This document shows, piece by piece, positions 1,924-63,998 of a stretch of DNA of 64,000 nt. The DNA comes from a virus. Both the position numbers and the translations under genes were made by a program. The notes below the pieces were generated by a model, which was not told the origin of the DNA, ran no database searches, and saw only the letters and a list, made by a program, of their open reading frames with translations. How positions within the stretch are numbered: position 1 is the stretch's first letter; every line of letters starts with the position of its first letter. Location: positions 11,009 to 75,008 of IMG/VR virus record IMGVR_UViG_3300027881_000008. One strand, written 5' to 3'.

Positions 1924-4335
1924 GTGTCTCGCCGAAGAGCGTTAGCAAAGAAAATTACGCGTAAACAGGCTCGCGCCTACGACCGCACCGTTCCCAATCC
2001 GATGGGCGTCACCGCCATCGCCGCGGTGAACGGCCCGGGTAGCTATGCCCGCCGCTACGAGGCCACTCGCCAGCTTCTTGAGCGCGAGCCCTCCAGCCGA
2101 CGTCGCCCGGTTCGCCCCAACAAGGCCACGCGCCGGCGCATCAAGACTTGGGCCGAGTTCCAAAAGCTGGCGGCCGTGGCCAACGCTCCCCCCAAGAAGC
2201 GCCGGGCGATGTACAGGTCGTACCACCAGAAGCATACCGGCAGGCTCCCGCCCGCCTCGGCTTGGACAGAAGCGAAGCCCAAGGCGAAGCCCAAGGCGAA
2301 GCCCAAGGCCAAGGCCAAGGCCAAGCCCCGGGCGAAAGCGAAGCCCAAGCCTCGCGCAAAGGCTCCCTTGAAGCGAGCCAAGAAGCGCCAGACGAAGGCC
2401 GATTGGGTGCGCATGAAGCGCCGCGAGAAGCCTGGCGCCAGCGACGAGCAACTGAACGCTTGGTGGAACAGCAAAAAAAGAGGAGACGAGCGTCAGCGGG
2501 CTATCAGGGCGTCCAAACAGGGGCGAGCAGCGGTTGCCCGCACTCCCGCTGGCCGTGAGGCCGCGCGTAGGAAGCGGATGCTGGGGGCGCAGAAGAAGAC
2601 CGGCAAGAAGACCGGCAAGAAGACCGGCAAGAAGCGCCAAACGAAGGCCGACTGGGAGCGCGCACAACGGCGCAAACACCCCGGGGTGAGCGACAAGCAG
2701 CTCGCCGCCCGGTGGAAGTTGGGGCAGGCGTCCAAGAAGCGCTACGCAGCTTCAAAGCGCCAGCGAGCCGAGGCCAAGCGAAAGAAGCAGGTCCGGCGCT
2801 ACGGCAAAGGAAAGTTCAAGGCCGCGCGAGCTCGCGTCGGCAGCGGGGTGCCCACCGACTACTGGACCTACATGTACCGGGACAAGGGCGGTCGTATGCG
2901 GAAGATCCCCGTGTGGGCGCTCGCTGGCTACAGCAGTAGCCGCGCCGCGCAGAAGGTACGAGACGAGGGAAGCCCACGCCGCCAAAGGGCGCTGGAGAAG
3001 CGTCTCGAAGCAATCCGAGTACGGCGGGACAAAGCGGTCGCCGTGGCGAAGAGACAGATCGAAAGAGGCACTGGCCGTTACGCCATGTTCTCACCTAACC
3101 AAGAACGCACAATTACCTACGAGGAGTGGGAAGAAGACATGAGAGCAAACAGCCGGCGTCGCCGCCGTAAAAAGTCCACGAAGAAACGGCGCACCCGTCG
3201 CGTTCGCCGCAATCCTGTCCACGCGAGCGCCCGCAAGGCTGCCCCCAAGCGCCGTCGCCGCCGTAAGGCGTCGACCCGCAAGGGAATGGTCCGCACCACG
3301 GCACGTCGAGCTTTCGAGTCGAATCGCCCGAAGCGTAAGCGCAAGCGCAAGAGCACCCGCAAGGGCATGGTGCGCCGCACCTCGCGTCGTGCGTATCGAA
3401 AGAACCAGGCCGCCACGTTCGGTGGGCGCTTCGTAGAGGTGCTTCAGATCGGTGGCGTGGTCGCAGTGGGCTTTGTTGTCCAGAAAGCTGCGACCACCGG
3501 CATCGTGAAGGCAATCGGAGACAAGTTCCCCGAGAGCGTCTTGAAGTTCAAGGGCTCGCTCGTCGGTCTCGGCGTAGCTGCCGCCGGCGTGCTTATTGGG
3601 AGCGGGATGAAGTCCGCGGCGATGCAGAACTTCGCCGCTGGTATGGGCGCCGGCCTCGTGCACACGGTCGCGAAGGAGGCTCTGGCCGCTTTCGCCCCTG
3701 ACTATGCCGACTACCTCGGTGCGCTTCCATCTCAGTACACGAACGCCGAAGGAAACCCGCAGTACAGCGGTTACGGCTCGTATTACGAGTTCAGCCCCCA
3801 TCAGGTTTTTGATGGGGTCGGCGAGTACTACGAGACGGCTCCCGCGGCCGTTCCGACGAGCGGCTTCGGCCAGCTTCCCCAGCTCTACCAGGCTGCGGCG
3901 GCATACGGCCAGGCGCCTCCGGGAATCCCGCAGCTCACGCAACAGGCGGCCGGCTACGGCAACCTGGACGTGAACCAGCTCACGCAGGCGGCAGCTGGAC
4001 TCGGCGCACCGATGCTCACCCAGGCCGCCGCAGGCGCCATGGGCGAGTATGTGGTGAGCGGAGGCAAAGGGATCGGCGAGTACGAGGAGGTCACTCCTGA
4101 ATACCAGAAGCCGACCACCACGGACGAGGGGATCCACCCCGACCTGACGAGCGCCGAATACGCGCTGTCGATTGCGGAAGCGGCGGCTGGCGTCGGCGCG
4201 TTCGGCGACAGCAACGTACCGCTGCAGAGCATCGTCAATCCAACCGGCCACCCCGAGGCCATCCCAGACATGCCAGGCGGCAGCCGAGCTGGCACCTTCG
4301 CTGGCCCCAACGGAGTCTTCGGACCCGGACACTGA
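1924..4335 (+). CDS. Arg/Lys-rich DNA-condensing core-like membrane protein (putative polyprotein)
   Basis: About 490 aa of extremely basic N-terminal sequence (KPKA, KKTG, poly-R), then 2-3 hydrophobic helices, then an acidic Gly/Tyr/Gln-rich C-terminus with repeated GxG motifs. Confidence 0.75.
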   Translation: MSRRRALAKKITRKQARAYDRTVPNPMGVTAIAAVNGPGSYARRYEATRQLLEREPSSRRRPVRPNKATRRRIKTWAEFQKLAAVANAPPKKRRAMYRSYHQKHTGRLPPASAWTEAKPKAKPKAKPKAKAKAKPRAKAKPKPRAKAPLKRAKKRQTKADWVRMKRREKPGASDEQLNAWWNSKKRGDERQRAIRASKQGRAAVARTPAGREAARRKRMLGAQKKTGKKTGKKTGKKRQTKADWERAQRRKHPGVSDKQLAARWKLGQASKKRYAASKRQRAEAKRKKQVRRYGKGKFKAARARVGSGVPTDYWTYMYRDKGGRMRKIPVWALAGYSSSRAAQKVRDEGSPRRQRALEKRLEAIRVRRDKAVAVAKRQIERGTGRYAMFSPNQERTITYEEWEEDMRANSRRRRRKKSTKKRRTRRVRRNPVHASARKAAPKRRRRRKASTRKGMVRTTARRAFESNRPKRKRKRKSTRKGMVRRTSRRAYRKNQAATFGGRFVEVLQIGGVVAVGFVVQKAATTGIVKAIGDKFPESVLKFKGSLVGLGVAAAGVLIGSGMKSAAMQNFAAGMGAGLVHTVAKEALAAFAPDYADYLGALPSQYTNAEGNPQYSGYGSYYEFSPHQVFDGVGEYYETAPAAVPTSGFGQLPQLYQAAAAYGQAPPGIPQLTQQAAGYGNLDVNQLTQAAAGLGAPMLTQAAAGAMGEYVVSGGKGIGEYEEVTPEYQKPTTTDEGIHPDLTSAEYALSIAEAAAGVGAFGDSNVPLQSIVNPTGHPEAIPDMPGGSRAGTFAGPNGVFGPGH
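2272..2349 (+). repeat. coding tandem repeat (AKPK)n
   Basis: GCGAAGCCCAAG x3 followed by degenerate GCCAAG units. Confidence 0.9.
2593..2634 (+). repeat. coding tandem repeat (KKTG)x3
   Basis: AAGAAGACCGGC x3. Confidence 0.9.
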
Positions 4336-4342
4336 AACCACT

Positions 4343-4447
4343 GCGTCCGACGGGGAGCGAGCTGGCCTTACGCTCCTCGTCACATGGCGCAAACAAAAAC
4401 TAGGCCAGGGCCGTAGCGGAACCAGGCCGCTTTATCAACGGAAGCCC
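4343..4447 (+). ncRNA. candidate cis-regulatory RNA with pseudoknot upstream of the putative major capsid gene
   Basis: Stem 4349-4359/4371-4381; loop CTGGCCT (4362-4368) complementary to AGGCCAG (4402-4408) after an A-rich linker; further stem 4408-4447. Confidence 0.45.
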
Positions 4448-4466
4448 AGAGAGAACAGAGAACACC

Positions 4467-5270
4467 ATCCCTAAATTGACAAATGTGCGAGAGCGCGTCC
4501 ATCAGCCCTTTCGCGATACCCTAGTGCGGACGGCCGGTACACAGACCGGTAACGTCAGTGACAACACCAAGCTGTTTACCGTTGCGGGTAAACCAGAAGG
4601 TGCAACGAACTTGCCCAACGGATCGACGCTTCCAAGCGATCAGTCGTTCGTCGTGCTGGCTCTGCGCGTCTTCACATGGTTCCGCAACAGCATCCAGCGT
4701 CCCATGCAGCAGGGCGCGGCCCCAGGCCGGCTCGTCATCCCGCTCCCCGACGGAACCACCATCTTCGCCGGCAACGGCGACTTCAACCTTCCCTTCGGCG
4801 GTGGCCCGGTCACCGGCGCTGCCTTCGCAGCCGTGCTGAACGGGCAGGGAATCGGAGACGTCAACGACGTTCACCGATTGAACTGGCAAGCTGAAGAGCA
4901 GCTCCTATGGAGCTACGGTGCGGGCGATAAATTCTCCCTCACATCCATGCCGTCAGCGTACTTCCCATATGGCGGCGGGCTTCACGGCCAATTGCCCTGT
5001 TCGACGGATTTGATTCTGTGGAACAACGGCATGCCGTCCCAAGAGGGCATCTTGCGTCTGGCAAGAGCAATCTTGATTCCCCCGCGACAGAATATCAAGG
5101 CGGAAGCCAACATTGCGCGCCTCGATACCGGCCCCAATGCGGCGACCCTCGCCACCACCCAGGGAGCGCGTGATATGTTCTCCCTTCGCGACAACCTCAA
5201 TGCCCCGGACCTCATCAACAAGGTTATTAGTCTGACCTTTGACGGCTTGTTCAGCCGCGACGTGCAGTGA
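4467..5270 (+). CDS. putative major capsid protein (single jelly-roll-like); probable ATC start (TTG 4476 alternative)
   Basis: Beta-rich; QPFRDT..LF..TNL..G.LP..QSFVVLALR at the N-terminus and a terminal strand ISLTFDGLFSR; flanked by a structured leader and a terminator; fold is inferred. Confidence 0.5.
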   Translation: MPKLTNVRERVHQPFRDTLVRTAGTQTGNVSDNTKLFTVAGKPEGATNLPNGSTLPSDQSFVVLALRVFTWFRNSIQRPMQQGAAPGRLVIPLPDGTTIFAGNGDFNLPFGGGPVTGAAFAAVLNGQGIGDVNDVHRLNWQAEEQLLWSYGAGDKFSLTSMPSAYFPYGGGLHGQLPCSTDLILWNNGMPSQEGILRLARAILIPPRQNIKAEANIARLDTGPNAATLATTQGARDMFSLRDNLNAPDLINKVISLTFDGLFSRDVQ

Positions 5271-5277
5271 GCCGTTA

Positions 5278-5420: not shown

Positions 5421-5482
5421 CTCCGCCTCTTTTGGCGGTGTCGCCCCAGGCAAGACGCGGTCGTGGGGAATGAAGGAGCGTC

Positions 5483-7957: not shown

Positions 7958-7959
7958 GA

Positions 7960-9916: not shown

Positions 9917-10459
9917 ATGAGCTACGTAGGACTAGGAAACGCTTTCGGGTCGACTGTCTCGTTACCAGCAGGGTTCGACGCGGGTAAACTCCCCTATTGC
10001 GGCACTGTGCGGGCCCTTCAAACCACGTTGGGCGGCATCGGCTACGACGTCGGCAAGGTAGACGGTAAGTGGGGGACGAATACGGCCAAGGGGGCCACCG
10101 CCTTCGCGCAGGCTAAGGGTCTGAACGTGAGCGGAGGCATTACCAAGAACTTCTGTCAGGCGCTGCAGAGCGAGTGGGTGGCCTCGATGGCTCCCCCGAC
10201 TCCCTCTGTCCCAGCGCCCCCGGCTCCAGTGCCGGGAGCAAAGGAACCGCCACCGGCGGGAAGGCACCCGGCTCCCCCCGCCGAAAAGGGGGCGGGGCCC
10301 GATCGACTTGACGCCTCGGGTGGCGCGCCCCCACCCCCCGTCAAGGCTGGGCTCTCGACGGGCGCTAAGGTCGCAATTGGCGGCGCGGCGCTCGTGGTCG
10401 TCTTCGGTGTCGTGGCAATCGCCAGCGGCTACGCCGACAAAGGGAGAACATCGCGGTGA
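9917..10459 (+). CDS. peptidoglycan-binding-domain membrane protein (MSYVGLG)
   Basis: VRALQTTLGGIGYDVGKVDGKWGTNT...FAQAKGL; Pro linker; KAGLS-TM. Confidence 0.8.
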   Translation: MSYVGLGNAFGSTVSLPAGFDAGKLPYCGTVRALQTTLGGIGYDVGKVDGKWGTNTAKGATAFAQAKGLNVSGGITKNFCQALQSEWVASMAPPTPSVPAPPAPVPGAKEPPPAGRHPAPPAEKGAGPDRLDASGGAPPPPVKAGLSTGAKVAIGGAALVVVFGVVAIASGYADKGRTSR

Positions 10460-11679
10460 ATTACACAGGAATAGGAATGCCCTTCGGCGCCTTCGGGCGC
10501 GTGCCCGAGGACCAGCCGTGTTGCGAACCGACCTGCGAGCAGCCGTGTCCTTTGGGCACCGGAACGCATTGCGGCAGCGTCTACGCCATGCAGACCATGC
10601 TTGGGGTCTTGGGCTTTCTCCATCCCCTCGACGAGACGAGCATCGACGGAAGGAACGGCCCGAAGACACGCGGGGCCGTGGCGGCCTACGCGCTGGCAAA
10701 AGGGATCCCCGTGGACCCGAACAAGCCGTCGGGCCTCTTCTGCGTGGCCCTGATCGCTGACTACAACGCCTATGTGGATCCTGGTCCCGGTGCGACCGAC
10801 CCCAACGAATGCGCCCCGGGCCAGTGGGGCGCCCCGCCCTTCTGCTTCGGCCAACCGTCGTCGGTGCCGCCCCCCCCCAAGGAGGCTGGCGCCTGCCCCC
10901 CTCCCACCGTGGGGCTCCCGCCTTACTGCGTGACGTTGCCCGGCGGAGGGGCTCCCCCCGTGCCACCGGGCGCCTCGGCGTGTCCACCCGGCACCCTCGG
11001 ACTACCCCCGCATTGTTTCGGCGTGCCTGGTGGCGTCCCTCCCACCACGCCTCCCGGGACTCCGCCAAAGCCCCCCCCAGGGCCAAAGCCCCCAGGGCCA
11101 AAGCCCCCGGGACCCAAGCCCCCGGGACCCAAGCCCCCGGGACCCAAGCCTCCCGCAGGACCCCCGCCCCCGACCCCAGGTCCCGTGCCCGCAAACGGGT
11201 TCTGGGAAAGCCGGAGCGACGGAGAGAAGGCGCTACTGCTAGGCGGCGGCGCTGCTGTCGGCTTGCTCTTGGTGGCTGCTCTGATGTCAGGCAGGCGCCG
11301 AAAGCCCAGCTCTAAGAAGCTCCCCGCGCTGACCTCCAACCCTAGAGGGCGCCGAAAGACGAAGCGCCGCCGGGCAAAGCTGCGCAAGGCTTCCAAGCGC
11401 CGCACCAAACGCCGCACCAAGCGCGTCCGCCGCAAGAAGAAGTGGGCCCAGGCAGTCGACCGGAGCATGCAAGAGCGCGGCACCGTCGGGTCTTTCACCA
11501 AACAGGCCCGCAACGCCGGCTACTCGGACACCATGGAGTTCGCGCGCAAGGTGATGGCCGGCTGGAGAGACGGAAGCAAGACCGTCTACAACAAACGGAC
11601 GCGCCGCAACATGCGGATCACCAAGCGCACCATGTACCGCGCCAACTTCGCTATCAACATCCAGAAGCGTCGGCGTTAG
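10456..11679 (+). CDS. peptidoglycan-binding, Cys/Pro-repeat membrane protein with basic C-terminal domain (MNYTGIG)
   Basis: VYAMQTMLGVLGF...IDGRNGPKTRGAV; three CxPxxxGxPPxC repeats; (KPPGP)n; TM; LTSNP then Arg/Lys-rich domain. Confidence 0.75.
   Translation: MNYTGIGMPFGAFGRVPEDQPCCEPTCEQPCPLGTGTHCGSVYAMQTMLGVLGFLHPLDETSIDGRNGPKTRGAVAAYALAKGIPVDPNKPSGLFCVALIADYNAYVDPGPGATDPNECAPGQWGAPPFCFGQPSSVPPPPKEAGACPPPTVGLPPYCVTLPGGGAPPVPPGASACPPGTLGLPPHCFGVPGGVPPTTPPGTPPKPPPGPKPPGPKPPGPKPPGPKPPGPKPPAGPPPPTPGPVPANGFWESRSDGEKALLLGGGAAVGLLLVAALMSGRRRKPSSKKLPALTSNPRGRRKTKRRRAKLRKASKRRTKRRTKRVRRKKKWAQAVDRSMQERGTVGSFTKQARNAGYSDTMEFARKVMAGWRDGSKTVYNKRTRRNMRITKRTMYRANFAINIQKRRR
11065..11154 (+). repeat. 15-bp coding tandem repeat (KPPGP)n
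   Basis: AAGCCCCCRGGRCCM about 5 copies. Confidence 0.85.
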
Positions 11680-12381: not shown

Positions 12382-13596
12382 ATGGCGTCCCTATCCTCCA
12401 CATCTCGCGCGTCGGACTCCGCTAAGGACGCGGCTGCCCTAGTCGGCCAACTCGTTCAGGTGCGGGCGGAGGGGGCGGCTACGGGGAGCCAAGACGCTGC
12501 GGTCGACGCGGCCATCGGGACCGACTCGAGCCATTGGAGGAAGAATGTGCGCGCCACGTTGGGCCAAACCGTGGCCCAGTCGGGGCGCCAGCAAGCGGCC
12601 GTGACTGCCGGGTACGTGGCGGATACTCTCCGAGGGTCGACGAACATTCCTCAACCCACCGTGGTCGCTATTTTGCGCGCGGACCTAGAGCGAGCCGAGA
12701 GAGAGGTCACCGACGCGGCGGCCGGTGCTTCGCGCTACCAACTGCCGCGCGACTTTGCGAGGGTAAAAATGAAAAACGAAATGACCTCAGAATCAATAGC
12801 TCCAAGCCAGACGGTCGCCACGGCGCGCCTCATCACCCGGCCGTCCACGGTCGCGCTCACCTATCCGGCCACCACCTCAGTACCTTATCCAGGCCCCACA
12901 TCAGACCCCATCGTGGGCGCCAACGGGGGGCTAATCCCCAACGGCAATGGGGGGAGCGACGTCGCTGGGCCCGACCTCAATGGGTTCGAGACCCTCTTCC
13001 CCGGGGGCTTCGCCGCTGGCGTCGTCGAGCCGGCGACGTGCAACGGATTATCCTACATGCGCATCGCTCCAGGTCACGCCGCGGCGGTCGCGCAGACGCT
13101 GAGCCAAGCGATGGCGACCCCCGACTTCTGCTCGGTCGTGCAGTGCCCCCCGGGCAAAGACGGCAAGATCAGCTCGGTGTTCTGTATGGCGGACGCCGAA
13201 GCCATAGCGGCCAACGAGGCGCAGCCGGTCGGACCTCTGCTAGCGAAGCTCCGGGCCGAAGGTCGCGCCTGCGTGCTCATCGCAGCTGAGCCCTTTGGCA
13301 CCTGCCTCGCCGGCGTTCCCCCTACGGGCCTCCCTGACATCGCGGGGAAAGGGTTCCACGCCGTGGTGCTGAGCGAGCCGACGGGGGGCTGGCAGCCGCC
13401 GTGCGGCGGTGCGCCGGTTCCCAAGCCTCCCGCTCCACCGACCCCCACCGCCACAGCGGGGATGAGCACGGGCACGAAGCTCCTCTTGGGGGGGATCGGC
13501 CTGGGCCTGGTGGGCACCGTGGTCTACCTAGCCACCCGCGACATGAAGAAGAAGTCGCCCTCCCTCACCTCCAACCGCCGCCGCCGACGTAGCTGA
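12382..13596 (+). CDS. C-terminally anchored membrane protein, paralogue family member 2
   Basis: Pro linker; AGMS-TM; tail ending LTSNRRRRRS. Confidence 0.75.
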   Translation: MASLSSTSRASDSAKDAAALVGQLVQVRAEGAATGSQDAAVDAAIGTDSSHWRKNVRATLGQTVAQSGRQQAAVTAGYVADTLRGSTNIPQPTVVAILRADLERAEREVTDAAAGASRYQLPRDFARVKMKNEMTSESIAPSQTVATARLITRPSTVALTYPATTSVPYPGPTSDPIVGANGGLIPNGNGGSDVAGPDLNGFETLFPGGFAAGVVEPATCNGLSYMRIAPGHAAAVAQTLSQAMATPDFCSVVQCPPGKDGKISSVFCMADAEAIAANEAQPVGPLLAKLRAEGRACVLIAAEPFGTCLAGVPPTGLPDIAGKGFHAVVLSEPTGGWQPPCGGAPVPKPPAPPTPTATAGMSTGTKLLLGGIGLGLVGTVVYLATRDMKKKSPSLTSNRRRRRS

Positions 13597-15612: not shown

Positions 15613-15995
15613 CGAAACGCCGTGCCGAGCTAAAGGATAGTCTGCGCGCAGCGGCCATGTTCCGCGTGTTCCAGCCACTGGACGCGGCGGGGATCGCGCC
15701 GGTTCCCGCACCCATAGGCGTCACCAACTGGGCGGTCTTCGACATCGAGGGATATACGCCCTCGGACGCCGTTGTGACACGCCTCGACGAGCTGGGAATA
15801 GCGACTCTCGATTACGAGCCCCAGCGCGACGACGCCGAGGCGCCTGACGACTTCGACGACTCAGACGCGGCGATTGAAGCGCTTTTGGACGGTTGGTGGC
15901 TGTGCGTCGTGCCCGATACTCTGCGGTCTCCCTATTCCCGCCTCCTGGTGGTGGAGCGGGTGACCCCACCTTCCCGCATAGGAGCGAAACCGTGA
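15609..15995 (+). CDS. hypothetical protein
   Basis: GTGA overlaps at both ends; GGAGG SD. Confidence 0.6.
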   Translation: MTKRRAELKDSLRAAAMFRVFQPLDAAGIAPVPAPIGVTNWAVFDIEGYTPSDAVVTRLDELGIATLDYEPQRDDAEAPDDFDDSDAAIEALLDGWWLCVVPDTLRSPYSRLLVVERVTPPSRIGAKP

Positions 15996-22590: not shown

Positions 22591-22603
22591 GAAGGCCGAA
22601 AAG

Positions 22604-43169: not shown

Positions 43170-43367
43170 GTGAAACGGTTTGTCGTGCGCGGTAAAGTGA
43201 CGCTCGACGTCTCTACGATGGTGGAGGCGGACGACCAGGAGCGGGCCGTGGACGAGGCTGTTTGCGCGTTGGTGGCAGAGCGCGTCCGCGGGATGGGGTA
43301 TCCTACCGACATGGTCGTCGAAGCTACCGCGATGCGAGCGCGCGAAATCCCGCCGCGCCCCAGGTGA
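43170..43367 (+). CDS. hypothetical protein
   Basis: GTGA-coupled to the helicase. Confidence 0.5.
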   Translation: MKRFVVRGKVTLDVSTMVEADDQERAVDEAVCALVAERVRGMGYPTDMVVEATAMRAREIPPRPR

Positions 43368-51800: not shown

Positions 51801-52451
51801 GTGGGAGAGGTCTTCGGAAAGAAGGCAGCTGAAGACCCAATCCTCAGCCTATACGCTCTATGCACGGCCGGAGCGCCGCTCAAGTCGCGCGCCGACAAGT
51901 ACAAACCACTGTTCCGGGCGGGGGGCGGAACCATCGAGCACACTCCCGAGTTCGCCGAGCAGTTCGCCCAGGAGACGGGCACTCACTCCGAATGCGTGGC
52001 GCGCCGTCTGGCGCGGCACATCTACGAGGAGGGACGCGCCCCCAAATGGTACAAGCTCCGCAACTGGCCGCGTGACGTTATCCCTTACCTCGAGTCGCTT
52101 TCCGCCTACCGCGTTCCGTGCCCGTCGAGCCAAGAACACGAACTCCGAAAGCGACTCAAAAGCGAAGAGCCACTTCCCGTCTACAGGCGGTGGCGCGAGG
52201 CTAGCCAGCGACTTCTGGGGACATCGGTTCCAGAGTCCACCGAGGTGGAAGAGATGTTCGCGGAGGAGGCGGGGCGGGGAGCGCCCATCCAGGCTTTCCG
52301 CCCGAGGGACGCAGAGGACTACGAGACGCGTCAGGTCTCCTCCGAAGAGAGCGCCGGGGGCCCAGGCGTGGTGGTTCGCCGCCGCCTCGCGACCCCCAAC
52401 GGGATGCAGCTGCTCCCGCTCTTGTTCGCGATGAAAAGGGCACGAGGATGA
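48855..52451 (+). CDS. giant tyrosine recombinase/integrase with long unknown C-terminal region
   Basis: RDRAL...TGARAEE (R), GKGDKTR (K), HGVRH (HxxR), LGHSSLSTTGIY (H, Y). Confidence 0.9.
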   Translation: MSQAAIDIHRPEAQLSRTVLELKQLATVWGRSAKGRSYVEALLTFLNRKQNHNTQRAYAFGLLEFFGWYELKKGRTPLPEEVRRVDAYAFSDYLQKRDIGLDEQRLAQDPDHALDLAIYRYVKGHPSARISAIRKKLVADHRFTQTVEFEAGGRKQSLRVLSIEADDLRGDALAAYVAKHGFAPPDPLDERLACMVDHNLLRRTPTIRRVRSGDAGLGLEHPSRAQLDFRVDPEVFSYFVDVHTTASGAERANSVVTRLSALASFWTYLITESAENAAGSEPLLKHNIWTEPRAQLMGAAKSRSRASRELKTPSRELFLRVLATTFVRSHEGQELQAASAFLEGADVSGSSSGEAGIYDLRDRALMVFAYWTGARAEEMRSLSRDAVQPDGLVTVLGKGDKTRSFAVPPPALRAISDFQAELDARSEGSSDPNALVHKLTASAAPLFPPLKLWGHNRGAQLVGLSADSFSKMMRHRGLRAGVGRQSAEWKKLHAHGVRHLAALEARQRGVDLATIQGTLGHSSLSTTGIYIEVRDPLKRSLMPARSAPGGAPPFQRRAPGHEHPEAEEVIEEIEIDEEPGLVGVGGQPEVPPGLYEEDEEAGDEPFPLDEEEEEAPEEDALTLVHRDAEELVAETDAVEKLLQVYRSNWGETGKRAKLVDAKGLLGSTYAGRPTGLPWWQGAAGAMNASYSYVPNEAETTKFPAMPVIGPQQFVMEAGWGEEDCDEPLCQALGELYSQWLQDPERGPTAAAALTEWIFTSAMVTLEVDAVVRERSGHWVAFDSPLEDTKSGQGKPRVLREHLNDAVVSWFERTAWQFRRSADSATARGSELTVPAWYSKKDPLLDIPAPERAELIDWLQVFVGLPPLDKTPRFDHGASRAKVGKLLGTLCAYDTLATDPDRTRKREQKEILSAVEDQITADVKRATKGRVADFRYGDTKKRRKIETVQAEMAREKSKREGSEEAAEASTKYSKYLATHLMEVVGEVFGKKAAEDPILSLYALCTAGAPLKSRADKYKPLFRAGGGTIEHTPEFAEQFAQETGTHSECVARRLARHIYEEGRAPKWYKLRNWPRDVIPYLESLSAYRVPCPSSQEHELRKRLKSEEPLPVYRRWREASQRLLGTSVPESTEVEEMFAEEAGRGAPIQAFRPRDAEDYETRQVSSEESAGGPGVVVRRRLATPNGMQLLPLLFAMKRARG

Positions 52452-55704: not shown

Positions 55705-58275
55705 TTAAAACAGGTCTGCGTCCACCCACTCGATTGTGGGGAACGCCCGCTGACGGGGGTTCTGGCTCATTTCGGCCAGCCCATCAGTGAGCCCAAACAT
55801 TCGCCCAAACACGTAGTCCTCGGCTTCGTCCTGCGTGAGGTCGAGTCCGTCGATCCGCTCGGCGATGGTCGCCTGTTTGTCGACCAGCATGGCGGCGATC
55901 ACCCCGTCCACCGTGTTCTCTGCCTGGATATAGGTGATAGTGCATTTGTTCTCCTGCCCGATCCTCCAGATACGGTCCTCGGCCTGCACCTGGTCCATGG
56001 GCCGCCAGGTACGCTCGAGGAACAGAGTCTCGCTAGCGGCGGTGAGAGTGAGCCCCGCGCCCGCCGCGGGTATCGAGCAAACCAACACGTCGAGTTCGCC
56101 GGCTTGGAAGGCGTCCTTGTACGCCGTACGGCGAGCTTCCGCGACGCCTCCAATGATCTGGCCGACGCGGAGCTTTCGGGTGACCCCGGCGTGCTCGACC
56201 TCCGTCTCCTTCAAGAGCTTGGTCAGGCCCTCGGTGACGTCGCGGTGGTAGGCCATCACCACCAACGGTCGGCCCGTGGATTCGTAGTGGCCCGTGATCC
56301 ACTCGACCGCGTAGGGGATCTTTCCCACGGCGGCGAGCTTGCGCAGAGCGGTCATCTTGGTGATCGCTTGAGCGCGCATGTGTTTCTCCACCGCCTCGGG
56401 ACCGCCTTTGGTTCCCACCCAGTCGATGAAATCCTTAGCCGCCCGCTTGTACTCTTTAGCGGTCTTAGGCTCCAACGCGATGAGCTTGGTCTGGCGTGAC
56501 TTAGGAGGAAGGGGCAAGATGTCCTTGGTCCTGCGCAACATGTAGTTCTCCGTCAGCACCGAGAACAGTTCCTTGCCGTTGCTGGCGCCGTCGAAGTTCC
56601 ACGTCTTGATGATGCGCCCGCCCCGGCAACGGCTGCGTGCGCAGGAGGCGGGAGGCTTGAAGCAGCGCCCGCATTTTGTTTCGAGGACGCCGTCGCAATA
56701 GCGAAGACCGAATTTTTGGTAGCTATCCCACCGCTCAGCGTCCAAAAAGTGCAAAAGAGGCCAAAGCTCCTTGGGACGGTTCATGAGCGGGGTAGCCGTG
56801 AGTAGGAAGACGCGCCCGGCGTCCTGCGACAGCTCGATGAACGCCTTGGCTCGATTGCTTCCCACGTATTTGCCGCGCTGCTGGCGGAGAGTCTTTAGGT
56901 AATGCGCCTCGTCAGCGATGAGGGTGGCGATCCGAAGCTTGCCCAACATTTTTGCGTGGGATGGGAGCACGTCGTAATTGATGACCACAACGTCAGCGGC
57001 CTTGTACTTGGCCAGCTTGTAGGGTTTGCGCCCCGCCACCACCATTACCGAAAATTCGCTGCGCCACTTCCCCATCTCGCGAAGCCATTCGACTCGTAGG
57101 GTGGCGGGGCACACCACGACCACGGGGGCGTCGGCTGCGACGCAAGCTTGGAGCGTCTTGCCTAGACCCGGCTCGTCGGCCAACAGCCCGCTGCGCTTCT
57201 TGTCGAGCCAGCTGATCCCTTCGACCTGGTACGGAAAGGCCACAGATGGAACGGAGCGGGCAGGAGCAGACGGCGCCGGCGCTGGCGCGTTTTCTTTCTT
57301 AGCGTCGGCGGAGGCCGCCTTCAGTTCGGACTTCTGGTCCTTGTCGTTGGAGACCATCTTCAGCTCGCGGTACGAGAAGAAGGTGAGCCCCCCGCTCACG
57401 CCCTTGTAGCCGAGACCCACGCGGGGCGACCCGTCGCGGTTCGTCCCCACCCATCGCACTACGCCCTCGCGGCCCTCGGGGTCGATTACCCGCTCCCCCT
57501 TCTGGAGGGCCTTGCGGGCCTCCTCGATGGTCCAGGCGTCGGTCTCGTTGGTGGCGCTCGTCGGAGGCCCCGCAGGAGGCGTCACAGGCGGAGGAAACTG
57601 CACGTCCCGGGGCACCACCGCCATGTTCCCCTCGAGGTCAAGCATGAGCTGGCCCGCGAAGGCGACGCTAAGAGCGGCGATGAGGTGGTCGATCTTATCT
57701 TCAGGTACGCACCACACCTTCTGGTGGCCCACCCACACGCGCCCGGGAACCGACTTCACCGCCTTGATGAAATCGGCGTTGAAGGGAGTCTTCGCACAAA
57801 TCCTTCCGGGCCCGACACGCACCAGCTTGATCTCGGAACCGGCGCGCTGGCCTTCGACGTAAAAGGAACGAAAGCGCCCAGCCGTTGCCCAGAAGCCGCA
57901 CCCCGCGGCGACCTTCTCGGCGGCGGCCACGACCACCTTCCAGTCGGGCCCCGTGTAGCTCGCCGCCATCGCCGCGTGCCAGATCGCTTTGTTGGTTGCC
58001 GCGCGGTAGTCGCCGACCGAGGCGGCGCTCGCAATGGAGGCTCGCATCTCCTCGGGAGCCATCGCGATCCCCTGGGCCAAGAGGTCCAGGTCCGGAGACC
58101 CCACCTCGCCGGCCTCCACCCCGAACTTCTCCTCGCAGATCGGGCCGATGCCCAGTTCGACGCTTCGCGCGTCGCGGAGCGGCCGGTTGCACATGCAGCA
58201 GTGAGTCGCCAGGAGCTTGGTCGATACAGCGTCCTCGTAGCCGTTTGGAGTGTAGGGGGCCTGCGTCACTGTCAT
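55705..58275 (-). CDS. SNF2/SMARCAL1-like helicase with N-terminal DUF6011-like zinc finger and HARP-like domain
   Basis: CCMCNRPLRDARSVELGIGPIC; PFNADFIKAVKSVPGRVW; ADEPGLGKT, DEAH, QAEDRIWRIGQ. Confidence 0.92.
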   Translation of the reverse strand: MTVTQAPYTPNGYEDAVSTKLLATHCCMCNRPLRDARSVELGIGPICEEKFGVEAGEVGSPDLDLLAQGIAMAPEEMRASIASAASVGDYRAATNKAIWHAAMAASYTGPDWKVVVAAAEKVAAGCGFWATAGRFRSFYVEGQRAGSEIKLVRVGPGRICAKTPFNADFIKAVKSVPGRVWVGHQKVWCVPEDKIDHLIAALSVAFAGQLMLDLEGNMAVVPRDVQFPPPVTPPAGPPTSATNETDAWTIEEARKALQKGERVIDPEGREGVVRWVGTNRDGSPRVGLGYKGVSGGLTFFSYRELKMVSNDKDQKSELKAASADAKKENAPAPAPSAPARSVPSVAFPYQVEGISWLDKKRSGLLADEPGLGKTLQACVAADAPVVVVCPATLRVEWLREMGKWRSEFSVMVVAGRKPYKLAKYKAADVVVINYDVLPSHAKMLGKLRIATLIADEAHYLKTLRQQRGKYVGSNRAKAFIELSQDAGRVFLLTATPLMNRPKELWPLLHFLDAERWDSYQKFGLRYCDGVLETKCGRCFKPPASCARSRCRGGRIIKTWNFDGASNGKELFSVLTENYMLRRTKDILPLPPKSRQTKLIALEPKTAKEYKRAAKDFIDWVGTKGGPEAVEKHMRAQAITKMTALRKLAAVGKIPYAVEWITGHYESTGRPLVVMAYHRDVTEGLTKLLKETEVEHAGVTRKLRVGQIIGGVAEARRTAYKDAFQAGELDVLVCSIPAAGAGLTLTAASETLFLERTWRPMDQVQAEDRIWRIGQENKCTITYIQAENTVDGVIAAMLVDKQATIAERIDGLDLTQDEAEDYVFGRMFGLTDGLAEMSQNPRQRAFPTIEWVDADLF

Positions 58276-58592: not shown

Positions 58593-58594
58593 GG

Positions 58595-59068
58595 CTAAAT
58601 GTCGATCACTTCCCAGGGGACGTCCACCCCCACGCCGTCGTCCCCCACCACGGGAGACCCAAAGGCGCTGCGGAGGTCCCTAGAAATGGCTCGGGAGAGG
58701 AGGACGAGCTGGAGCATCTCGGGGTCGCTGAGGCCCCCGGCTCCGAGCGCCCCGGTGCGCTCGTTCATGTAGTTGGTCCCCCAGATGACGTTGAACTCGA
58801 TGTTCTGCCGCTTGGGAGCGCTCAGCTTCACCTTGGCGAGCGCGCCGAAGATGGCGCCTCTAGCCATCACCATGCGGGCGCCTATCCACCGAGCGGCGCA
58901 GGACTCGAAGGTGCCCGCGTGAACGGCGGGGGGCGCGCGGAACGAAAAACGACGAGCCGGGGGTTGGCGAAGCGCCGGCGCAGCGAGAGAGCGCCACGGT
59001 GAGCTTCGCGGGCGGGCCAAATGGAGAGCCATCTTGTGCTTAGTCGGGATGGGCAGGATAGGGACCAT
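58595..59068 (-). CDS. hypothetical protein
   Basis: AAGGA SD; fills the operon gap. Confidence 0.5.
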   Translation of the reverse strand: MVPILPIPTKHKMALHLARPRSSPWRSLAAPALRQPPARRFSFRAPPAVHAGTFESCAARWIGARMVMARGAIFGALAKVKLSAPKRQNIEFNVIWGTNYMNERTGALGAGGLSDPEMLQLVLLSRAISRDLRSAFGSPVVGDDGVGVDVPWEVIDI

Positions 59069-60026
59069 GAGCTTTCCTTTCGCGCCTTGTAGCAGGCGCA
59101 GAGTCGCGGACCAGGGGGACGTCCAGACCTAGCCATTGCGGAGAGATCACCACCATGTTCCCTGGGTCGGTGATGGCGAAGTCCCAGTCGTCAGGGTCGG
59201 CGTAGTCGCCTGTTGCTTCGTCCCAATCGTCCCCCACCTCTCCCACGTTGCCGGGATGGACATCGGAGAGGACCATCCCCTTGTCTAAGTAGTAGCGAAG
59301 GGCGGTGCCAACGGACGACCCGAGAACGAGTTTCGTCATCATCTCGCTCACCTGATAGAGGCGGTGAACCTCCCAAGCGAGCCTATCAGTGAGGGCCAGG
59401 AACTCCGCGTTTGTGGGGTGGTCTAGGTCCATGATGTCCAGCGAGACAAACGGGCGCTCAGGGGGCGCCGCCTCTTGCACGCGCTCCCAGAGCCGGCGCA
59501 CAAGGGGCTCCCGTTCCGGCCACGCCAACATCAAGTCAAAGACGTTGCCCGCGTGGGCCAAGAAATCGTAGAGCAGGGCGACGAAGGCGCCTACCGATTT
59601 GGGGCCCGCCGTATTTTTGTATTGCCTCACACGCTTCCCGGCCGCCCCAAGAACGCCCACGTTGAAAGCCTCTTCGCGCCATACCAGAAACACAGGCCGG
59701 TGCTCGAACTTCTCGGGAAGCGCCAGCGCCGTGTAGTACTCCACGATCCCCGGAGGCCAGATCCCCTCAGCGCGTGCAAGCTCCATTGCGCCCTGGGCGA
59801 AGAACGCTTCGCTGCCGTCGGTCGTGATCTTGAGGACGGTCCCGGGGTCGCCCGTCGCCAAGACGCACCCGTAGGCGCCGCAGCCGAGTTCTTCCATCAC
59901 CCCGCCGGTCTCGACGGGCAGCGGCCCCGCCTCGGCAGACGCAACGATGGCGTCCCAGTTGCGCGCGAGCATCTGGTCCACCCAGTCGGGGTTGGGCTTC
60001 GCCCTTTTCTTCTTCCGCTTGGGGAT
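59040..60026 (-). CDS. protein-kinase-like (PK/APH fold) enzyme; probable ATC start
   Basis: LGCGAYGCV, VLKIT..SE, SDVHPGNVG, ITDPG; GAGGAG SD 6 nt before ATC 60026. Confidence 0.8.
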   Translation of the reverse strand: MPKRKKKRAKPNPDWVDQMLARNWDAIVASAEAGPLPVETGGVMEELGCGAYGCVLATGDPGTVLKITTDGSEAFFAQGAMELARAEGIWPPGIVEYYTALALPEKFEHRPVFLVWREEAFNVGVLGAAGKRVRQYKNTAGPKSVGAFVALLYDFLAHAGNVFDLMLAWPEREPLVRRLWERVQEAAPPERPFVSLDIMDLDHPTNAEFLALTDRLAWEVHRLYQVSEMMTKLVLGSSVGTALRYYLDKGMVLSDVHPGNVGEVGDDWDEATGDYADPDDWDFAITDPGNMVVISPQWLGLDVPLVRDSAPATRRERKAHGPYPAHPD

Positions 60027-60027
60027 G

Positions 60028-60294
60028 TCAAGCTCCTCGCTCGGAGGCCATCTTTCGGATGCATGCCGCCAAACGTGGGTGGTTGTTGAGCTCGGCGGCA
60101 CGAGCGGTGGCAAGCATATCGGCGACCGAGGTCCCCTTCCCCTTCCCCGCCAGGTACGCTTTCACCGTGGGCAGTTCTTCGGGCTTGATGTTGGTGTCCA
60201 GGCACCCGGCCGCTGAGCCCTTGCGGGTAAGCAGCAGGCCGACTCCCACCACCGCTCCAGCCAGGAGCAAAAGAGACATGTTGCGTTGGTCCAT
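60028..60294 (-). CDS. small N-terminally anchored membrane protein
   Basis: LLLLAGAVVGVGLLLTRK. Confidence 0.65.
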   Translation of the reverse strand: MDQRNMSLLLLAGAVVGVGLLLTRKGSAAGCLDTNIKPEELPTVKAYLAGKGKGTSVADMLATARAAELNNHPRLAACIRKMASERGA

Positions 60295-60299
60295 GGGGC

Positions 60300-60593
60300 T
60301 CACGAGACTACCGTCAGTTCGTTGTCGACGATGCCCCAAGCAGCGAGCTGCGCGAGGTAGTCACCCATCTCGTCTGGGTGGACGTCGAATTTTTCCTCCA
60401 AGATTTCTCGCCAGTCGTCCTCCGAGTAGCGCGAGACGTCGCCCCCCGAGGTCTGGAACTGGACCATGAACTCCGAAAGAGCGGCGCCGCTGTCCACCAC
60501 TTCGACCACGCAGCTCTTCGCCCGGTTCGGGGTGTAGTCCGAGCCCCCGTGAAAAAATTGACCCACCAAAGTATCCAGTTCTTTTGACGCCAT
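60300..60593 (-). CDS. hypothetical acidic protein
   Basis: GAGGAG SD; YTPN motif. Confidence 0.65.
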   Translation of the reverse strand: MASKELDTLVGQFFHGGSDYTPNRAKSCVVEVVDSGAALSEFMVQFQTSGGDVSRYSEDDWREILEEKFDVHPDEMGDYLAQLAAWGIVDNELTVVS

Positions 60594-60595
60594 GA

Positions 60596-62407
60596 CTAAT
60601 GCTCCTCGTAAAACACGACCAAGTCGTGGTAGCGGCCGTCGCTCCCGTTCCAGCAAGCGCGGCAACCGTGCTCCCCGTCGGGGCCCAGCGCAGTGATGCA
60701 CGTTCCCCCCACGCCCTTCTGGCTCCGAGGGTCGAGGCGAATGGCTCCCCCGCCGCCGGTCCAGTGCTCATAAGCTGGGCACTTGTAGTCATTTTTGGTC
60801 GGCGTCTCCGGGGCCGACCCGCTCGCCGCCGAAAGACCTCCCCCGCGCCCTTTCTTGAAGGCGGGGAGCTTGAGGGTGTTGTGGAGGTACGCGGACGTCG
60901 GAGCCTCGTCGCGGAAGTGGAGCGTGGACGGACGCAGGGCGAGGTTCTCCGGCACCTCCTTGAGGGTGACGTCCCGAAGCGTCCCCGCGAACGCCCACAT
61001 CCGCGTGGGCGCCCAGAACCTCACGTCATCCGCAAAATGCCTGCACACGTCCAGCCACGCCCGGAAGTAGGGGTCGCTGTACATGTCGCCGGCGTCGTGA
61101 ATGCGGAAATAGCCTGGGTCGGGTAGCTGCCAGTCAGCATAGAGCTTCTTGTACTTGGGGCGCGTGGACGTGAACTCGTCAACCGAGGCGTTGGCGAGGA
61201 CGACGTCCGCCGCGATCTGGGCCTTCAGCTTGGCGCGAGCTTTTCCGGCGGACTTCGGCAGCTTTTTGAGGCTGCGCTTCACGCGTTTCTTTGCCCAGTG
61301 CCACGTCTCGATGTCTTGCGTGCGCTGGTACTCGGCCGCGGTGTACTTGAAGTGTTTGAGCTTCGCGCGCCGCTCGCTCACCTTTATGCGCGCCTCCGTG
61401 AAGGCCGCGACGATCAACTCGCTAAACGACACCGCTAAGGGCTGGCACGCGCCTTCGGCCAAGTCGGGGTAGGTGGCGCCGAAGGTTCCGCTCTTCAACA
61501 CCCTTCCCGTCTTGCCTCGGGGTTTCGCGGCGCGGTAGTCCTCAGCGGACACAACGAATAAATTTTTCTGGGCCTCCCGAGACGACGGTCCCTTCCCCTC
61601 GTTCTTCATCAGCTTCTCGACGAGGTACAGGCGGATCCCCATCTCCAATACGATGGAGGGATTGCCGTAGGCGTTCTTGATAGCGTAACAGCCGTTGCAG
61701 ATGAACGTCTCCGGGTCGATGACGACGTTCTTGTCCCGCTTGCCCTTCTGAGCCTTGAGCAGCTCACCCACCGGGCTGTACATGAACCCTATGGTAGACG
61801 CCGGACACGTCCCGCCTAGCTTGGGGGGACCGGCGGGCAGGTTGAAGGAGTAGCACCCCATTTTACTGGTGTTGGTGAGCAGCCCAATGGTCCCCATGGC
61901 CGTGTCGGGCTCCTTCGGGACCTTCGTGGGGTACCCGGCGCGCTCGAACATCTGCTGTACATCGCCGCGCGTGAAGGGGGGCACGACGGCGACCCGGACG
62001 GGCTGGTCGAGGTCGCGGTCCATGTAGACCACCACGTCGCGGTCCTTCAGCTCTTTCTCGATCTGGTCGCGGATGCTCACCGCAGACGCTGGCGCGTCCC
62101 ACTGAGTGGCGGCGACGTGCCTGTTGAGGCTCATCATGCTCGTACGAGCGCCCGGAGGAAGAGGCACGTCCGCTGCCCCGCTCACCTGGAGCATCTTGAG
62201 GCGCACCTTGTATTTCGAGTTGTAGTCGCGGGGGAGGATGAGCGCGTCGGCCAACACCAGCTTGGGATCGAGCTTCTTGGGGCGCCCTGAAGAGGTGGTA
62301 AGCGTCGGGAGCAGCAGGCCCTTGGTGCGCTTGACGGCCTCGTCGTAACGGTATCCGAGGGCATCCTCGCCCTCCTGGGGGTGCTTGTTGGGGCGATATG
62401 GGCTCAT
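60596..62407 (-). CDS. Gp88-like (radical-SAM-related) Fe-S protein with insertions
   Basis: TSKMGCYSFNLPA, TCP...CNGCYA, YFRIHDAGD, FWAPTR, CPAY...CRACW. Confidence 0.7.
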   Translation of the reverse strand: MSPYRPNKHPQEGEDALGYRYDEAVKRTKGLLLPTLTTSSGRPKKLDPKLVLADALILPRDYNSKYKVRLKMLQVSGAADVPLPPGARTSMMSLNRHVAATQWDAPASAVSIRDQIEKELKDRDVVVYMDRDLDQPVRVAVVPPFTRGDVQQMFERAGYPTKVPKEPDTAMGTIGLLTNTSKMGCYSFNLPAGPPKLGGTCPASTIGFMYSPVGELLKAQKGKRDKNVVIDPETFICNGCYAIKNAYGNPSIVLEMGIRLYLVEKLMKNEGKGPSSREAQKNLFVVSAEDYRAAKPRGKTGRVLKSGTFGATYPDLAEGACQPLAVSFSELIVAAFTEARIKVSERRAKLKHFKYTAAEYQRTQDIETWHWAKKRVKRSLKKLPKSAGKARAKLKAQIAADVVLANASVDEFTSTRPKYKKLYADWQLPDPGYFRIHDAGDMYSDPYFRAWLDVCRHFADDVRFWAPTRMWAFAGTLRDVTLKEVPENLALRPSTLHFRDEAPTSAYLHNTLKLPAFKKGRGGGLSAASGSAPETPTKNDYKCPAYEHWTGGGGAIRLDPRSQKGVGGTCITALGPDGEHGCRACWNGSDGRYHDLVVFYEEH

Positions 62408-63264: not shown

Positions 63265-63461
63265 TTGGCCACCCGACCACGAAGCCCATGGGAGTGCAGC
63301 TGGGCGTACCGCAGCACCCACTGGTTCGTTCGCTCGGGCCGGAAGCATTGTTTGCGCCAGCGGTCCCCACAGTGGCTGCAAGCGCAGTGGATCCACCACT
63401 GGCCCGTGTTGTCTGGGCCCGCCTGGTAGGTGGCGTAAGGGTGATTAGGTACGGGTTGCAT
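63261..63461 (-). CDS. small zinc-finger protein
   Basis: CSHC...C...H; GTGA-coupled. Confidence 0.6.
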   Translation of the reverse strand: MQPVPNHPYATYQAGPDNTGQWWIHCACSHCGDRWRKQCFRPERTNQWVLRYAQLHSHGLRGRVAK

Positions 63462-63473
63462 TAGGGCTGGTCG

Positions 63474-63998
63474 CTATGAGAGCCGGTAATAGCTGTCGTC
63501 GAGGCTGCCGAGCACGTCCTGCACGTCGCTCGCCGCCCAGAACGCTCGCCTCCCGGAGTCCTGGATGGCCTCGTGGCTCTGCAGGTCACCCAACAAGAAG
63601 TCCTGCAGGCGATTGTTGCGCCACCGGAGAATGGCGACCACGTCGTCGCCTACATCCCGGCCCTTCATCTTCGCGCCAGCTCCAATGGGCAGCGTGAACA
63701 CCGCGTCGCCGTCGTCGTCGAGACGGAACGGTAGCACGTACGACCCGCCGCCCCAGTCAGCGACCACCTCGTTCGCCTGACGGCGCGTCTTGGTATAAAG
63801 CGGAGCCACCTCCCAGGGCTCTTGGACAGCCAGGAAGCGGTAGCCCTTTGAGTACATCTGCCGGCGCTCATCCGGGTTAAGCTTGTACTGGCTGAGCCAG
63901 TGCTTCGCGCCCTTCATCATCTTCCAGGTGCCAGCGCCCTGCCGATAGCTGCGTCCCTTGCGGCGCTGCTTGTAGATGAACTGGTCGCGCGTAACGGG
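63474..63998 (-). CDS. hypothetical protein, 5' end beyond the window
   Basis: Frame is open upstream of ATG 63920 to the window edge (PVTRDQFIYKQRRK...). Confidence 0.6.
   Translation of the reverse strand, partial: PVTRDQFIYKQRRKGRSYRQGAGTWKMMKGAKHWLSQYKLNPDERRQMYSKGYRFLAVQEPWEVAPLYTKTRRQANEVVADWGGGSYVLPFRLDDDGDAVFTLPIGAGAKMKGRDVGDDVVAILRWRNNRLQDFLLGDLQSHEAIQDSGRRAFWAASDVQDVLGSLDDSYYRLS

Follow-up and report, generated by a model that had tools for sequence, protein, structure and literature searches.

Protamines and the C-terminal domain of the hepatitis B virus (HBV) core protein, with its SPRRR repeats, are arginine (Arg)-rich nucleic-acid-binding domains. The protease of adenoviruses recognises the consensus (M/I/L)XGX-G or (M/I/L)XGG-X, and internal proteins of phage T4 carry an N-terminal leader of about 10 amino acids, the capsid-targeting sequence, which is removed by the prohead protease cutting after (L/I)xE. 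Both the processing of the adenovirus core precursors pVII and pre-mu (pX) [PMC3386624] and the assembly of phages [PMC3185693] have been reviewed. In this study we have analyzed a short motif, a hydrophobic residue three positions before an asparagine (Asn), or h-x-x-N, in the proteins encoded by bases 11009-75008 of the 75,008-base IMG/VR viral contig IMGVR_UViG_3300027881_000008. This whole stretch of 64,000 bases is referred to as the window, and feature coordinates are positions within it. A preliminary description of the window had listed 17 pentapeptides of this kind and interpreted them as a cleavage or packaging tag of proteins loaded into the virion, forming one half of a two-tag cargo-sorting system that would deliver a kinase, a Nudix protein, a helicase and a recombinase together with the DNA.

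Our analysis suggests that the 17 sites do not represent one tag but probably fall into three groups, namely a unit linked to Arg runs, ordinary turns, and sites without evidence either way. Comparison of the predicted proteins with their relatives shows that an h-x-x-N unit does exist, is conserved and is tied to Arg runs. About seven to nine of the 17 sites appear to belong to a real punctuation of Arg-rich, putatively DNA-binding segments, which is apparently undescribed. The earlier observation is partly confirmed and its interpretation partly supported; a two-tag cargo-sorting system is not supported by the evidence from this window.

Genes were called with a crude program based on the GC content at third codon positions (GC3), which yielded 70 genes for the window and 78 for the whole contig, the GC content being 64-70%. 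All 17 pentapeptides were found at the Asn codons and on the strands given for them, 16 of them in frame inside called genes, the exception being YTPNR (60525). They occupy residues 11, 41, 76, 121, 142, 295, 392-494, 839 and 1182 of their proteins. The pattern by which they had been described, [YFMLVA]xxN[PRGQ], is fitted by 14 of the 17 and not by MRANS, RPKNP and YRPNK. Orthologs were taken from the IMG/VR contigs G001 (54 kb) and G002 (28 kb), the metagenome loci L089 and L090, protein P0002 and eight helicase homologs; related viral contigs of the family measure 110-180 kb. Unrelated GC-rich viral and metagenome loci, processed with the same gene caller and comprising 64k and 134k amino acids, were used as controls.

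The arginine-rich core protein and the tails of membrane-anchored proteins

The first group of sites is centred on an Arg/Lys-rich protein of 803 amino acids (1924-4335, + strand), here called the core protein. Its gene is located directly upstream of the gene for a jelly-roll-like beta-sandwich protein of 264 amino acids (4476-5270, +), which was used as the anchor and marker of the family. The core protein shows no Pfam or PHROG match and consists of a conserved N-terminal block (..TVPNPMGVTAIAAVNGPG..), basic repeats, hydrophobic segments and a tail of GEY repeats, in this order. Its Arg-rich region (3088-3408, +) contains FSPNQ (3088-3102), MRANS (3139-3153), VRRNP (3202-3216), FESNR (3313-3327) and YRKNQ (3394-3408), which had been proposed to segment it. 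This proposal is correct, because the rule holds in the core protein of the window as well as across the orthologs of the family. In the window, 5 of 6 Asn in basic segments of the core protein have a hydrophobic residue or His at position -3, compared to a background of 12% (p=1e-4). In the ortholog from G001, which shares 43% identity in a mafft alignment and 35% by tblastn, the sites FTPNK, ARHNP, ARRNP and MHRNG are laid out in the same way as FSPNQ, VRRNP and YRKNQ of the window, and the basic blocks between the motifs have diverged and have been duplicated independently in the two proteins.

By tblastn, core orthologs were found in 11 family loci. When the gene upstream of the 264-amino-acid marker was collected from each related locus, 23 distinct core sequences were obtained (including those of the window and G001), with 264 Asn in basic regions that consist of 25% Arg and 15% Lys. 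At least 69% of these Asn have M, H, L, V or Y at -3, where 13% would be expected; the counts are M 46, H 40, L 37, V 32 and Y 26, with 5-10 expected for each. At -2, Arg is found 107 times against 65 expected; Pro is more frequent than expected at -1, as are Gly and Pro at +1. The residue at +1 varies (R, A, G, P, S, K), being mostly Arg, Ala or Ser, and Pro directly follows only 22 of the 264 Asn. The unit in the core family can be written as h-x-x-N followed by an Arg run. Such units also occur in tandem, with SRRRRSRRTS[VM]RRN repeated five times in L192 and YTANRRRRS-YRRNG in L182, and several orthologs have [FYL]R[RK]NQ as the last unit ahead of the hydrophobic domain; in the window this is YRKNQ.

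The core family thus displays what is expected of a protamine-like domain, that is, tandem Arg blocks separated by short fixed spacers, encoded by a gene that lies beside the conserved jelly-roll-like gene in the relatives examined. The tandem arrangement of short Arg blocks with fixed spacers (SRRRRSRRTS[VM]RRN) is shared with protamines and the HBV core protein, and the Ser-rich spacers could likewise be phosphorylated; unlike there, the h-x-x-N spacer signature is specific to this lineage and is also found on the tails of membrane proteins. The core protein resembles adenovirus pVII and pre-mu in its Arg-rich blocks, which here are putatively DNA-condensing, and in the short motif that delimits them, in which a small invariant residue is preceded at a constant distance by a hydrophobic one. 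In both cases, the motif is found on further proteins, which in adenovirus are other internal ones. The differences are that Asn takes the place of the adenovirus Gly, so that the consensus of the adenovirus protease is absent and the hydrophobic offset alone is held in common, that no clan-CE protease was found among 48 proteins scanned with Pfam from this contig of about half a genome, and that the virus appears to be bacterial.

We propose that the sites of the first group mark protamine-like Arg-rich segments assembled from lineage-specific units, each with a hydrophobic residue (M/L/V/Y/F/H), a second position that is often R or T, a free third position and Asn beside an Arg run. This unit fills the core protein and forms the link to the Arg tails in two membrane-anchored proteins (LTSNP and LTSNR); the tail of an integrase is assigned to this group less surely. 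The Arg runs would bind the packaged DNA, as in protamine-like viral core domains, and each junction would be marked by h-x-x-N as a fixed hinge, a cap or a site of recognition. If functional, the unit would represent the way in which widespread uncultured large bacterial viruses condense their DNA and tie membrane proteins to it. To our knowledge, a solution resembling that of protamines or the adenovirus core has not been described for bacterial viruses, and a literature search for Arg-rich core proteins in membrane-containing phages returned general reviews only. The unit is also a simple signature by which metagenomic contigs of this group can be searched for the core protein and DNA-facing tails.

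Several further features of the core protein were observed. Its most conserved Asn-Pro is located in the N-terminal block (1993-2043, +; ..TVPNPMGVTAIAAVNGPG..) and was not among the listed sites; most orthologs carry it as [YML]R[PSA]NP(M)GVT..VNG. The C-terminal third (3700-4335, +; orthologs L170-L195) contains a further repeat that is conserved, G-E-Y.. / QAAAG.., its terminus ..GSRAG.F.G.NGVFGP is conserved as well, and in L175 LGEYFAQNG occurs four times. In L187-L191 the core gene is split into a basic protein of about 900 amino acids, followed by a protein of 232 amino acids that opens with an Arg leader and MRRNP before the conserved hydrophobic domain. Ser and Thr recur within the Arg blocks (3139-3408, +), with STRKGMVR found twice in the window and SRRRRSRRTS in relatives. 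By analogy with protamines or the HBV core tail, phosphoregulation of these blocks is conceivable, and a kinase-like protein is encoded at 59040-60113 (-).

Outside the core protein, the unit is found at the ends of two membrane-anchored proteins. The tail of the first (11329-11679, +, of the protein encoded at 10456-11679) leads from a transmembrane (TM) helix through KK..LTSNP and RGRRKTKRRR into a basic stretch of about 110 amino acids, and the second (13564-13596, +, of the protein at 12382-13596) ends with ..KKKSPSLTSNRRRRRS directly before the stop codon. The placement of LTSNP and LTSNR after a TM helix and before an Arg tail could be confirmed, and matching tails exist in relatives. 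In the window, 11 proteins end in a TM helix, five of these have a basic tail, and two of the five carry the motif (LTSNPRGRRK.. and LTSNRRRRRS). Among 37 basic tails from 26 related loci five contain h-x-x-N, which is followed immediately by an Arg run or, once, by a stretch of basic and acidic residues; they include ..AMAANRRRGRARR, ..LARNRRR, ..ALASNRRHRRRRRRA and ..LRQNRLRQNRLRRRR, the first three of which match the window tail ..KKKSPSLTSNRRRRRS. Asn with a hydrophobic residue at -3 after a TM helix was found four times in the contig (1.1 expected) and for 6 of 10 Asn in the relatives (1.0 expected), and the controls contain nearly no post-TM basic tails of this kind. The h-x-x-N/Arg unit is thus not confined to one protein of the lineage but is found on unrelated ones, although only a minority of these carry it (5 of the 37 tails in the relatives).

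The same arrangement could be read as a maturation-cleavage code, in which h-x-x-N(P) would constitute the cut sites of a virus protease, a core polyprotein would be converted into protamine-like Arg peptides, and Arg tags or linkers would be trimmed from other virion proteins, both membrane and internal ones. Large (110-180 kb) uncultured bacterial viruses would in this case possess an adenovirus-like core maturation, carried out by a protease of papain/transglutaminase fold. Such a code would account for the constant format of the motif, an invariant Asn with a hydrophobic residue at -3, which recurs at almost all boundaries of the Arg blocks in the 23 core sequences. It would also account for the presence of the unit at junctions in unrelated membrane proteins, for its retention where the core gene is split (the 232-amino-acid protein of L187-L191 with Arg leader and MRRNP) and for the Asn-Pro found at module seams. 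An enzyme with conserved Cys, His and Asp, 64-67% identical in G001, is available as a candidate. It is encoded at L168:2255-2881 (-) in the contig bases upstream of the window and comprises 208 amino acids with a transglutaminase/papain-like Cys..His..Asp arrangement as judged by eye (..DCDESAMMAATMALAIG..THVAV..LMDS..), making it a candidate virion protease or cross-linker. As a variant of the cleavage reading, the invariant Asn may be the acceptor of an isopeptide cross-link made by such an enzyme.

Against cleavage stands that the candidate enzyme has no Pfam match and that no protease with h-x-x-N specificity was identified; the Pfam scan of 48 proteins yielded no protease match in a contig that, by the CheckV estimate, represents about half a genome. 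The residue after Asn is variable (R, A, G, P, S, K), and most proteases disfavour a Pro behind the scissile bond. Trimming of six C-terminal residues (LTSN|RRRRRS) would have no obvious purpose, and the motif is missing from most TM-anchored basic tails, that is, from 3 of 5 in the contig and 32 of 37 in the relatives. We regard a cleavage code as rather unlikely, though more probable than the other alternatives discussed below.

Sites in the helicase, the integrase and other proteins

The second proposed group would comprise ordinary Asn-Pro and Asn-Gly turns or helix caps at the edges of secondary structures and domains, as found in any proteome, with some of the sites locally conserved for reasons of their own. 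YTPNG before the first helix of a helicase and MRPNP at the seam of a Nudix protein may serve as examples, and the C-terminal motif of the same helicase as a case of local conservation.

This helicase (SNF2 with DUF6011, 55705-58275, -), referred to as helicase 2, carries two listed sites and has full-length homologs in a graded series from 95 to 44% identity. MSQNP (55756-55770, -) is located in its C-terminal tail. Of the 13 homologs of alignment A2, 11 retain it as [ML]xxNP (once NG) with R, Q or S as the next residue, and it recurs in this form in L089 and L090 (46-95% identity). The tail is otherwise variable, apart from a conserved end, [IV][DE]W..F, after MSQNP. In an AlphaFold2 (AF2) model of helicase 2, residues 829-856 have a predicted local distance difference test (pLDDT) score below 50, which places MSQNP in a disordered tail. 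The complete C-terminal motif (55705-55770, -) can be written as [ML]xxNP[RQ]-x(5-6)-[IV][DE]W-x2-[AS][DE]xF-COOH and looks like a partner-binding peptide.

The second site, YTPNG (58240-58254, -), corresponds to residues 8-12 and is kept as [YFL]x[PA]NGYE only in homologs of at least 56% identity. The model shows disorder over residues 1-10 and a first helix over residues 12-18, with N11 directly before the latter; similarly, N474 begins the helix 474-485. The helicases of G001 and G002 are shorter and lack both ends of helicase 2.

Such positions resemble the helix-capping arrangements (Schellman, alpha-L and Pro C-capping, with Asn as N-cap) that Aurora and Rose in 1998 and Prieto and Serrano in 1997 reportedly described. 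A hydrophobic residue, two further residues, Asn and Gly or Pro come near to a textbook helix-end or Asx-Pro turn signature, this combination is enriched 1.2-1.4x in unrelated proteomes, and N11 and N474 of helicase 2 lie at helix starts in the one AF2 model. What helix capping leaves unexplained is the near-obligatory hydrophobic residue at -3 and the Arg at -2 beside Arg runs in the core family.

The tyrosine recombinase/integrase (1198 amino acids; 48855-52451, +; Pfam Phage_integrase at residues 359-534) ends with the tail RRRLATPNGMQLLPLLFAMKRARG (52389-52451, +), which consists of an Arg run, h-x-x-N-G and a short hydrophobic segment. The corresponding tails read RRRLATPNG-MQLLPLLFAMKRARG in the window, ATKNPKRRSSMRINP-IKLLFASSLMKAAPR in G002 (..ATKNPKRRSSMRINPIKLLFASSLMKAAPR) and RRYVSNH-VPFWFAARMVRNAYR in L090 (..RRYVSNHVPFWFAARMVRNAYR), so that all three proceed from an Arg run through h-x-x-N to a short hydrophobic end. 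The full-length orthologs of L090 (1194 amino acids) and G002 (1379 amino acids) have the long C-terminal extension with its basic-hydrophobic tail in common with the window, which makes the extension a conserved feature. A megablast search with the integrase gene against phages gave no match. The terminal placement claimed for the motif applies to MSQNP and ATPNG, which are located in conserved terminal tails, but not to the motif as a class (see below).

MRPNP (23748-23762, +) had been described as lying between fused domains, and the seam was verified: it separates a Nudix domain (residues 7-113, Pfam) from a mobile C-terminal module of about 100 amino acids. In P0125 and P0126 the Nudix part is 93% and 81% identical and [ML]RPNPG is kept, and homology stops right after RPNPG, the sequences being completely divergent from there on. 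The module (GYKV..SGADSR..MPGNGIYLSPN..YVLDYYSGLAD; 23763-24068, +) has no Pfam name. Its 225 homologs range from stand-alone proteins of about 100 amino acids to multi-domain proteins of up to 3,899 amino acids, and it occurs either alone or with other partners. This recalls the polyvalent multi-domain proteins of phages and conjugative elements that Iyer et al. are said to have described in 2017, as the same module is found alone and in very large proteins, with borders that sometimes carry Asn-Pro. Unlike polyvalent proteins, the protein of the window is only a two-module fusion, and more than 80% of the seams in the module family lack Asn-Pro.

We assign AERNP, RPKNP, YTPNR, YRPNK and YKLNP tentatively to the third group. 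AERNP (16244-16258, +) lies in a protein of 208 amino acids (15893-16519) without a family match in a Pfam scan, and RPKNP (22916-22930, +) in a protein of 238 amino acids (22502-23218); the latter falls outside the described pattern because its position -3 is Arg. YTPNR (60522-60536, -) is part of an open reading frame (ORF; 60300-60701) that was not picked by the GC3 caller and has no Pfam match. YRPNK (62384-62398, -) represents residues 73-77 of a GP88-domain protein of 672 amino acids, and YKLNP (63873-63887, -) is found in an ORF (63474-63998) that runs off the end of the contig. A protein of 137 amino acids from G001 contains ..SWFKLNPNG.., which resembles the YKLNP site by sequence string alone.

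AKPNP (59988-60002, -) follows KRKKKR in the kinase-like ORF (59040-60113) and lies 5' of its first ATG, and for this reason it would be translated only from a TTG, GTG or ATC start. The start of this ORF is ambiguous (59972-60113, -), since the basic KRKKKRAKPNP precedes the first ATG and an in-frame ATC is located 6 nucleotides after GAGGAG. Translation of the AKPNP stretch, as judged from these start codons, is uncertain.

The motif as a class

In the window the pattern [YFMLVA]xxN[PRGQ] occurs 53 times, compared to 40.2+-6.0 after shuffling within proteins. The looser form in which it had actually been applied gives 81 matches against 67 after shuffling, and in view of these 81 matches the 17 listed sites represent a hand-picked quarter. 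In the whole contig the stricter pattern gives 66 matches, compared to 46 after shuffling (ratio 1.44, z about 3.1), a ratio that is left unchanged by shuffling in windows of 12 or 24 residues. In the control loci hxxN[PRGQ] reaches 1.19-1.24x, hxxN[PG] 1.40x and Asn-Pro 1.34-1.41x over shuffles. As the controls already show 1.19-1.24x, the lineage-specific surplus in the contig amounts to about 10 sites, and most of the excess is ordinary protein grammar. Asn-Pro and N[PG] are at chance level in the contig (39 vs 37.6 and 85 vs 81.4), and around its 468 Asn neither position -3 nor position +1 shows an enriched residue.

A bias to termini and linkers, as had been claimed, was not observed, 24 of the 66 sites being located at most 45 amino acids from a terminus compared to 31% expected (p=0.22). 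Likewise, the motif as a class is not conserved beyond its surroundings: motif Asn are kept in 51%, other Asn in 45% and other residues in 49% of ortholog comparisons (Fisher p=0.41). A general rule of a hydrophobic residue at -3 of Asn in any basic segment was considered and rejected, being not significant outside the core protein; the rule was followed by 5 of 15 such Asn in the contig (19% background, p=0.14), 12 of 42 in the relatives (21%) and 25 of 106 in the controls (20%). A motif at the DNA level was rejected too, as the 17 sites have no nucleotide word in common beyond their Asn and Pro codons.

With no terminal bias, no extra conservation and no -3 rule outside the core protein, a single tag common to the 17 sites is not supported. 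What survives of the proposed second sorting tag is the h-x-x-N/Arg unit, which is present family-wide in the core protein and in two tails, whereas the other sites are heterogeneous and give no signal as a class. The cargo code claimed for the kinase, the Nudix protein, the helicase and the recombinase is built on a loose pattern, the matches to which resemble ordinary protein grammar in their behaviour. It shares with the T4 capsid-targeting sequence the concept of a short peptide common to unrelated proteins, which is used to load them into the capsid and is then removed. The sites are, however, N-terminal, internal or C-terminal, and they have Asn and no Glu at the key position, so that they do not qualify as sequences of the T4 type.

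These results raise the question of pure chance and observer selection, by which all sites would be random matches to a very loose pattern. Six to seven residues are allowed at -3 and four to six at +1, the 81 matches of the applied pattern contrast with 17 that were listed, the profiles of single positions around Asn are flat, and neither a positional bias nor class-level conservation is found. For the core protein and the membrane tails, however, chance is refuted: the rule holds for at least 69% of the 264 Asn against 13%, and reaches p=1e-4 in the core protein of the window alone. In addition, MSQNP, the ATPNG-like sites and [ML]RPNPG are positionally conserved in diverged orthologs. As an explanation of all sites, we consider chance improbable; it would hold only for the sites of the third group.

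Some observations weigh against a division of the sites into an Arg-linked unit and ordinary turns. The narrower pattern h[RKT]xNP, which was defined after its hits had been seen, was found 7 times in the contig (2.2 expected), 6 times in G001 (1.3), 6 times in G002 (0.5), 3 times in L089 (0.5) and 5 times in L090 (0.4), giving 20 against 2.9 for the four relatives together, and 45 against 14.7 for 26 family loci, an enrichment beyond that of the controls (17 against 12.2). Furthermore, the hxxNP subset of the listed sites is enriched 2-4x in each of the four relatives, and Asn-Pro occurs at most four residues from the border of the C-terminal module in 6 of the 85 flanks upstream of it and in 9 of the 86 flanks downstream, where about one would be expected from an estimate of the background rate. 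From these sequence counts, we leave room for a wider, real Asn-Pro signal at seams. The division also rests on a gene set from crude GC3-based calls, and among the proteins that bear listed sites helicase 2 is the only one to have been modelled, the other model being that of the 264-amino-acid protein, which carries none. On the other side, many of the h[RKT]xNP matches in the family are orthologous core sites, from the N-terminal block ([YML]R[PSA]NP(M)GVT..VNG) or the basic repeats, and others are textbook helicase motifs (UvrD LNPxQ, VINNPSRGLG; SNF2). In addition, more than 80% of the 34-amino-acid flanks of the C-terminal module are free of Asn-Pro.

Asn self-cleavage is known from reovirus mu1 (Asn42-Pro43), the nodavirus coat protein and the NPTH motif of FlhB/YscU, and requires a folded active-site environment. 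Release of membrane-active or DNA-binding peptides by such an asparagine-lyase mechanism, in the absence of a protease, would be in line with the invariant Asn, with several N-P sites (VRRNP, LTSNP, MSQNP and MRPNP) and with an integrase tail from which a short hydrophobic peptide would be freed, but it is very improbable, as Pro follows only 22 of the 264 core Asn, NPTH is present at none of the sites, and the sites lie in low-complexity or disordered sequence, as does MSQNP in the AF2 model of helicase 2.

Gene content of the contig

The majority of the called proteins have no Pfam or PHROG match. Among those recognised by these databases are the Nudix domain, the 1198-amino-acid tyrosine recombinase, helicase 2 and the GP88-domain protein described above; a gene for a GT4 glycosyltransferase was also recognised, and a DnaB-like helicase gene lies in the contig bases upstream of the window. 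The product of 43262-45061 (599 amino acids) matches the same SNF2 helicase loci as helicase 2 and hence represents a second SNF2-type helicase. A single-sequence scan of viral contigs with the helicase gave no match. For the protein of 565 amino acids at 20090-21787, a single homolog, P0002 (40%), is known, and scans of viral, metagenome and genome contigs yielded no locus.

For the 264-amino-acid marker protein, 27 related IMG/VR loci with 31-68% identity were found on contigs of up to 182 kb. Its AF2 model is a beta-sandwich with a predicted template modelling (pTM) score of 0.71. In structural comparisons with VIA-align, the top matches were TNF/C1q-like proteins and viral jelly rolls (PRD1 P5 and a PR772 chain among them), with Z values of at most 7.5; a Foldseek search with the same model returned no significant match. 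The jelly-roll likeness of the model to these structures is suggestive rather than decisive, and it may be a protein of the capsid or vertex in large bacterial viruses of a group not yet described.

The window also encodes an SLT domain and peptidoglycan-binding domains, the latter being weak matches below the Pfam cut-off. From these two kinds of domains, the virus appears to be a bacterial one.

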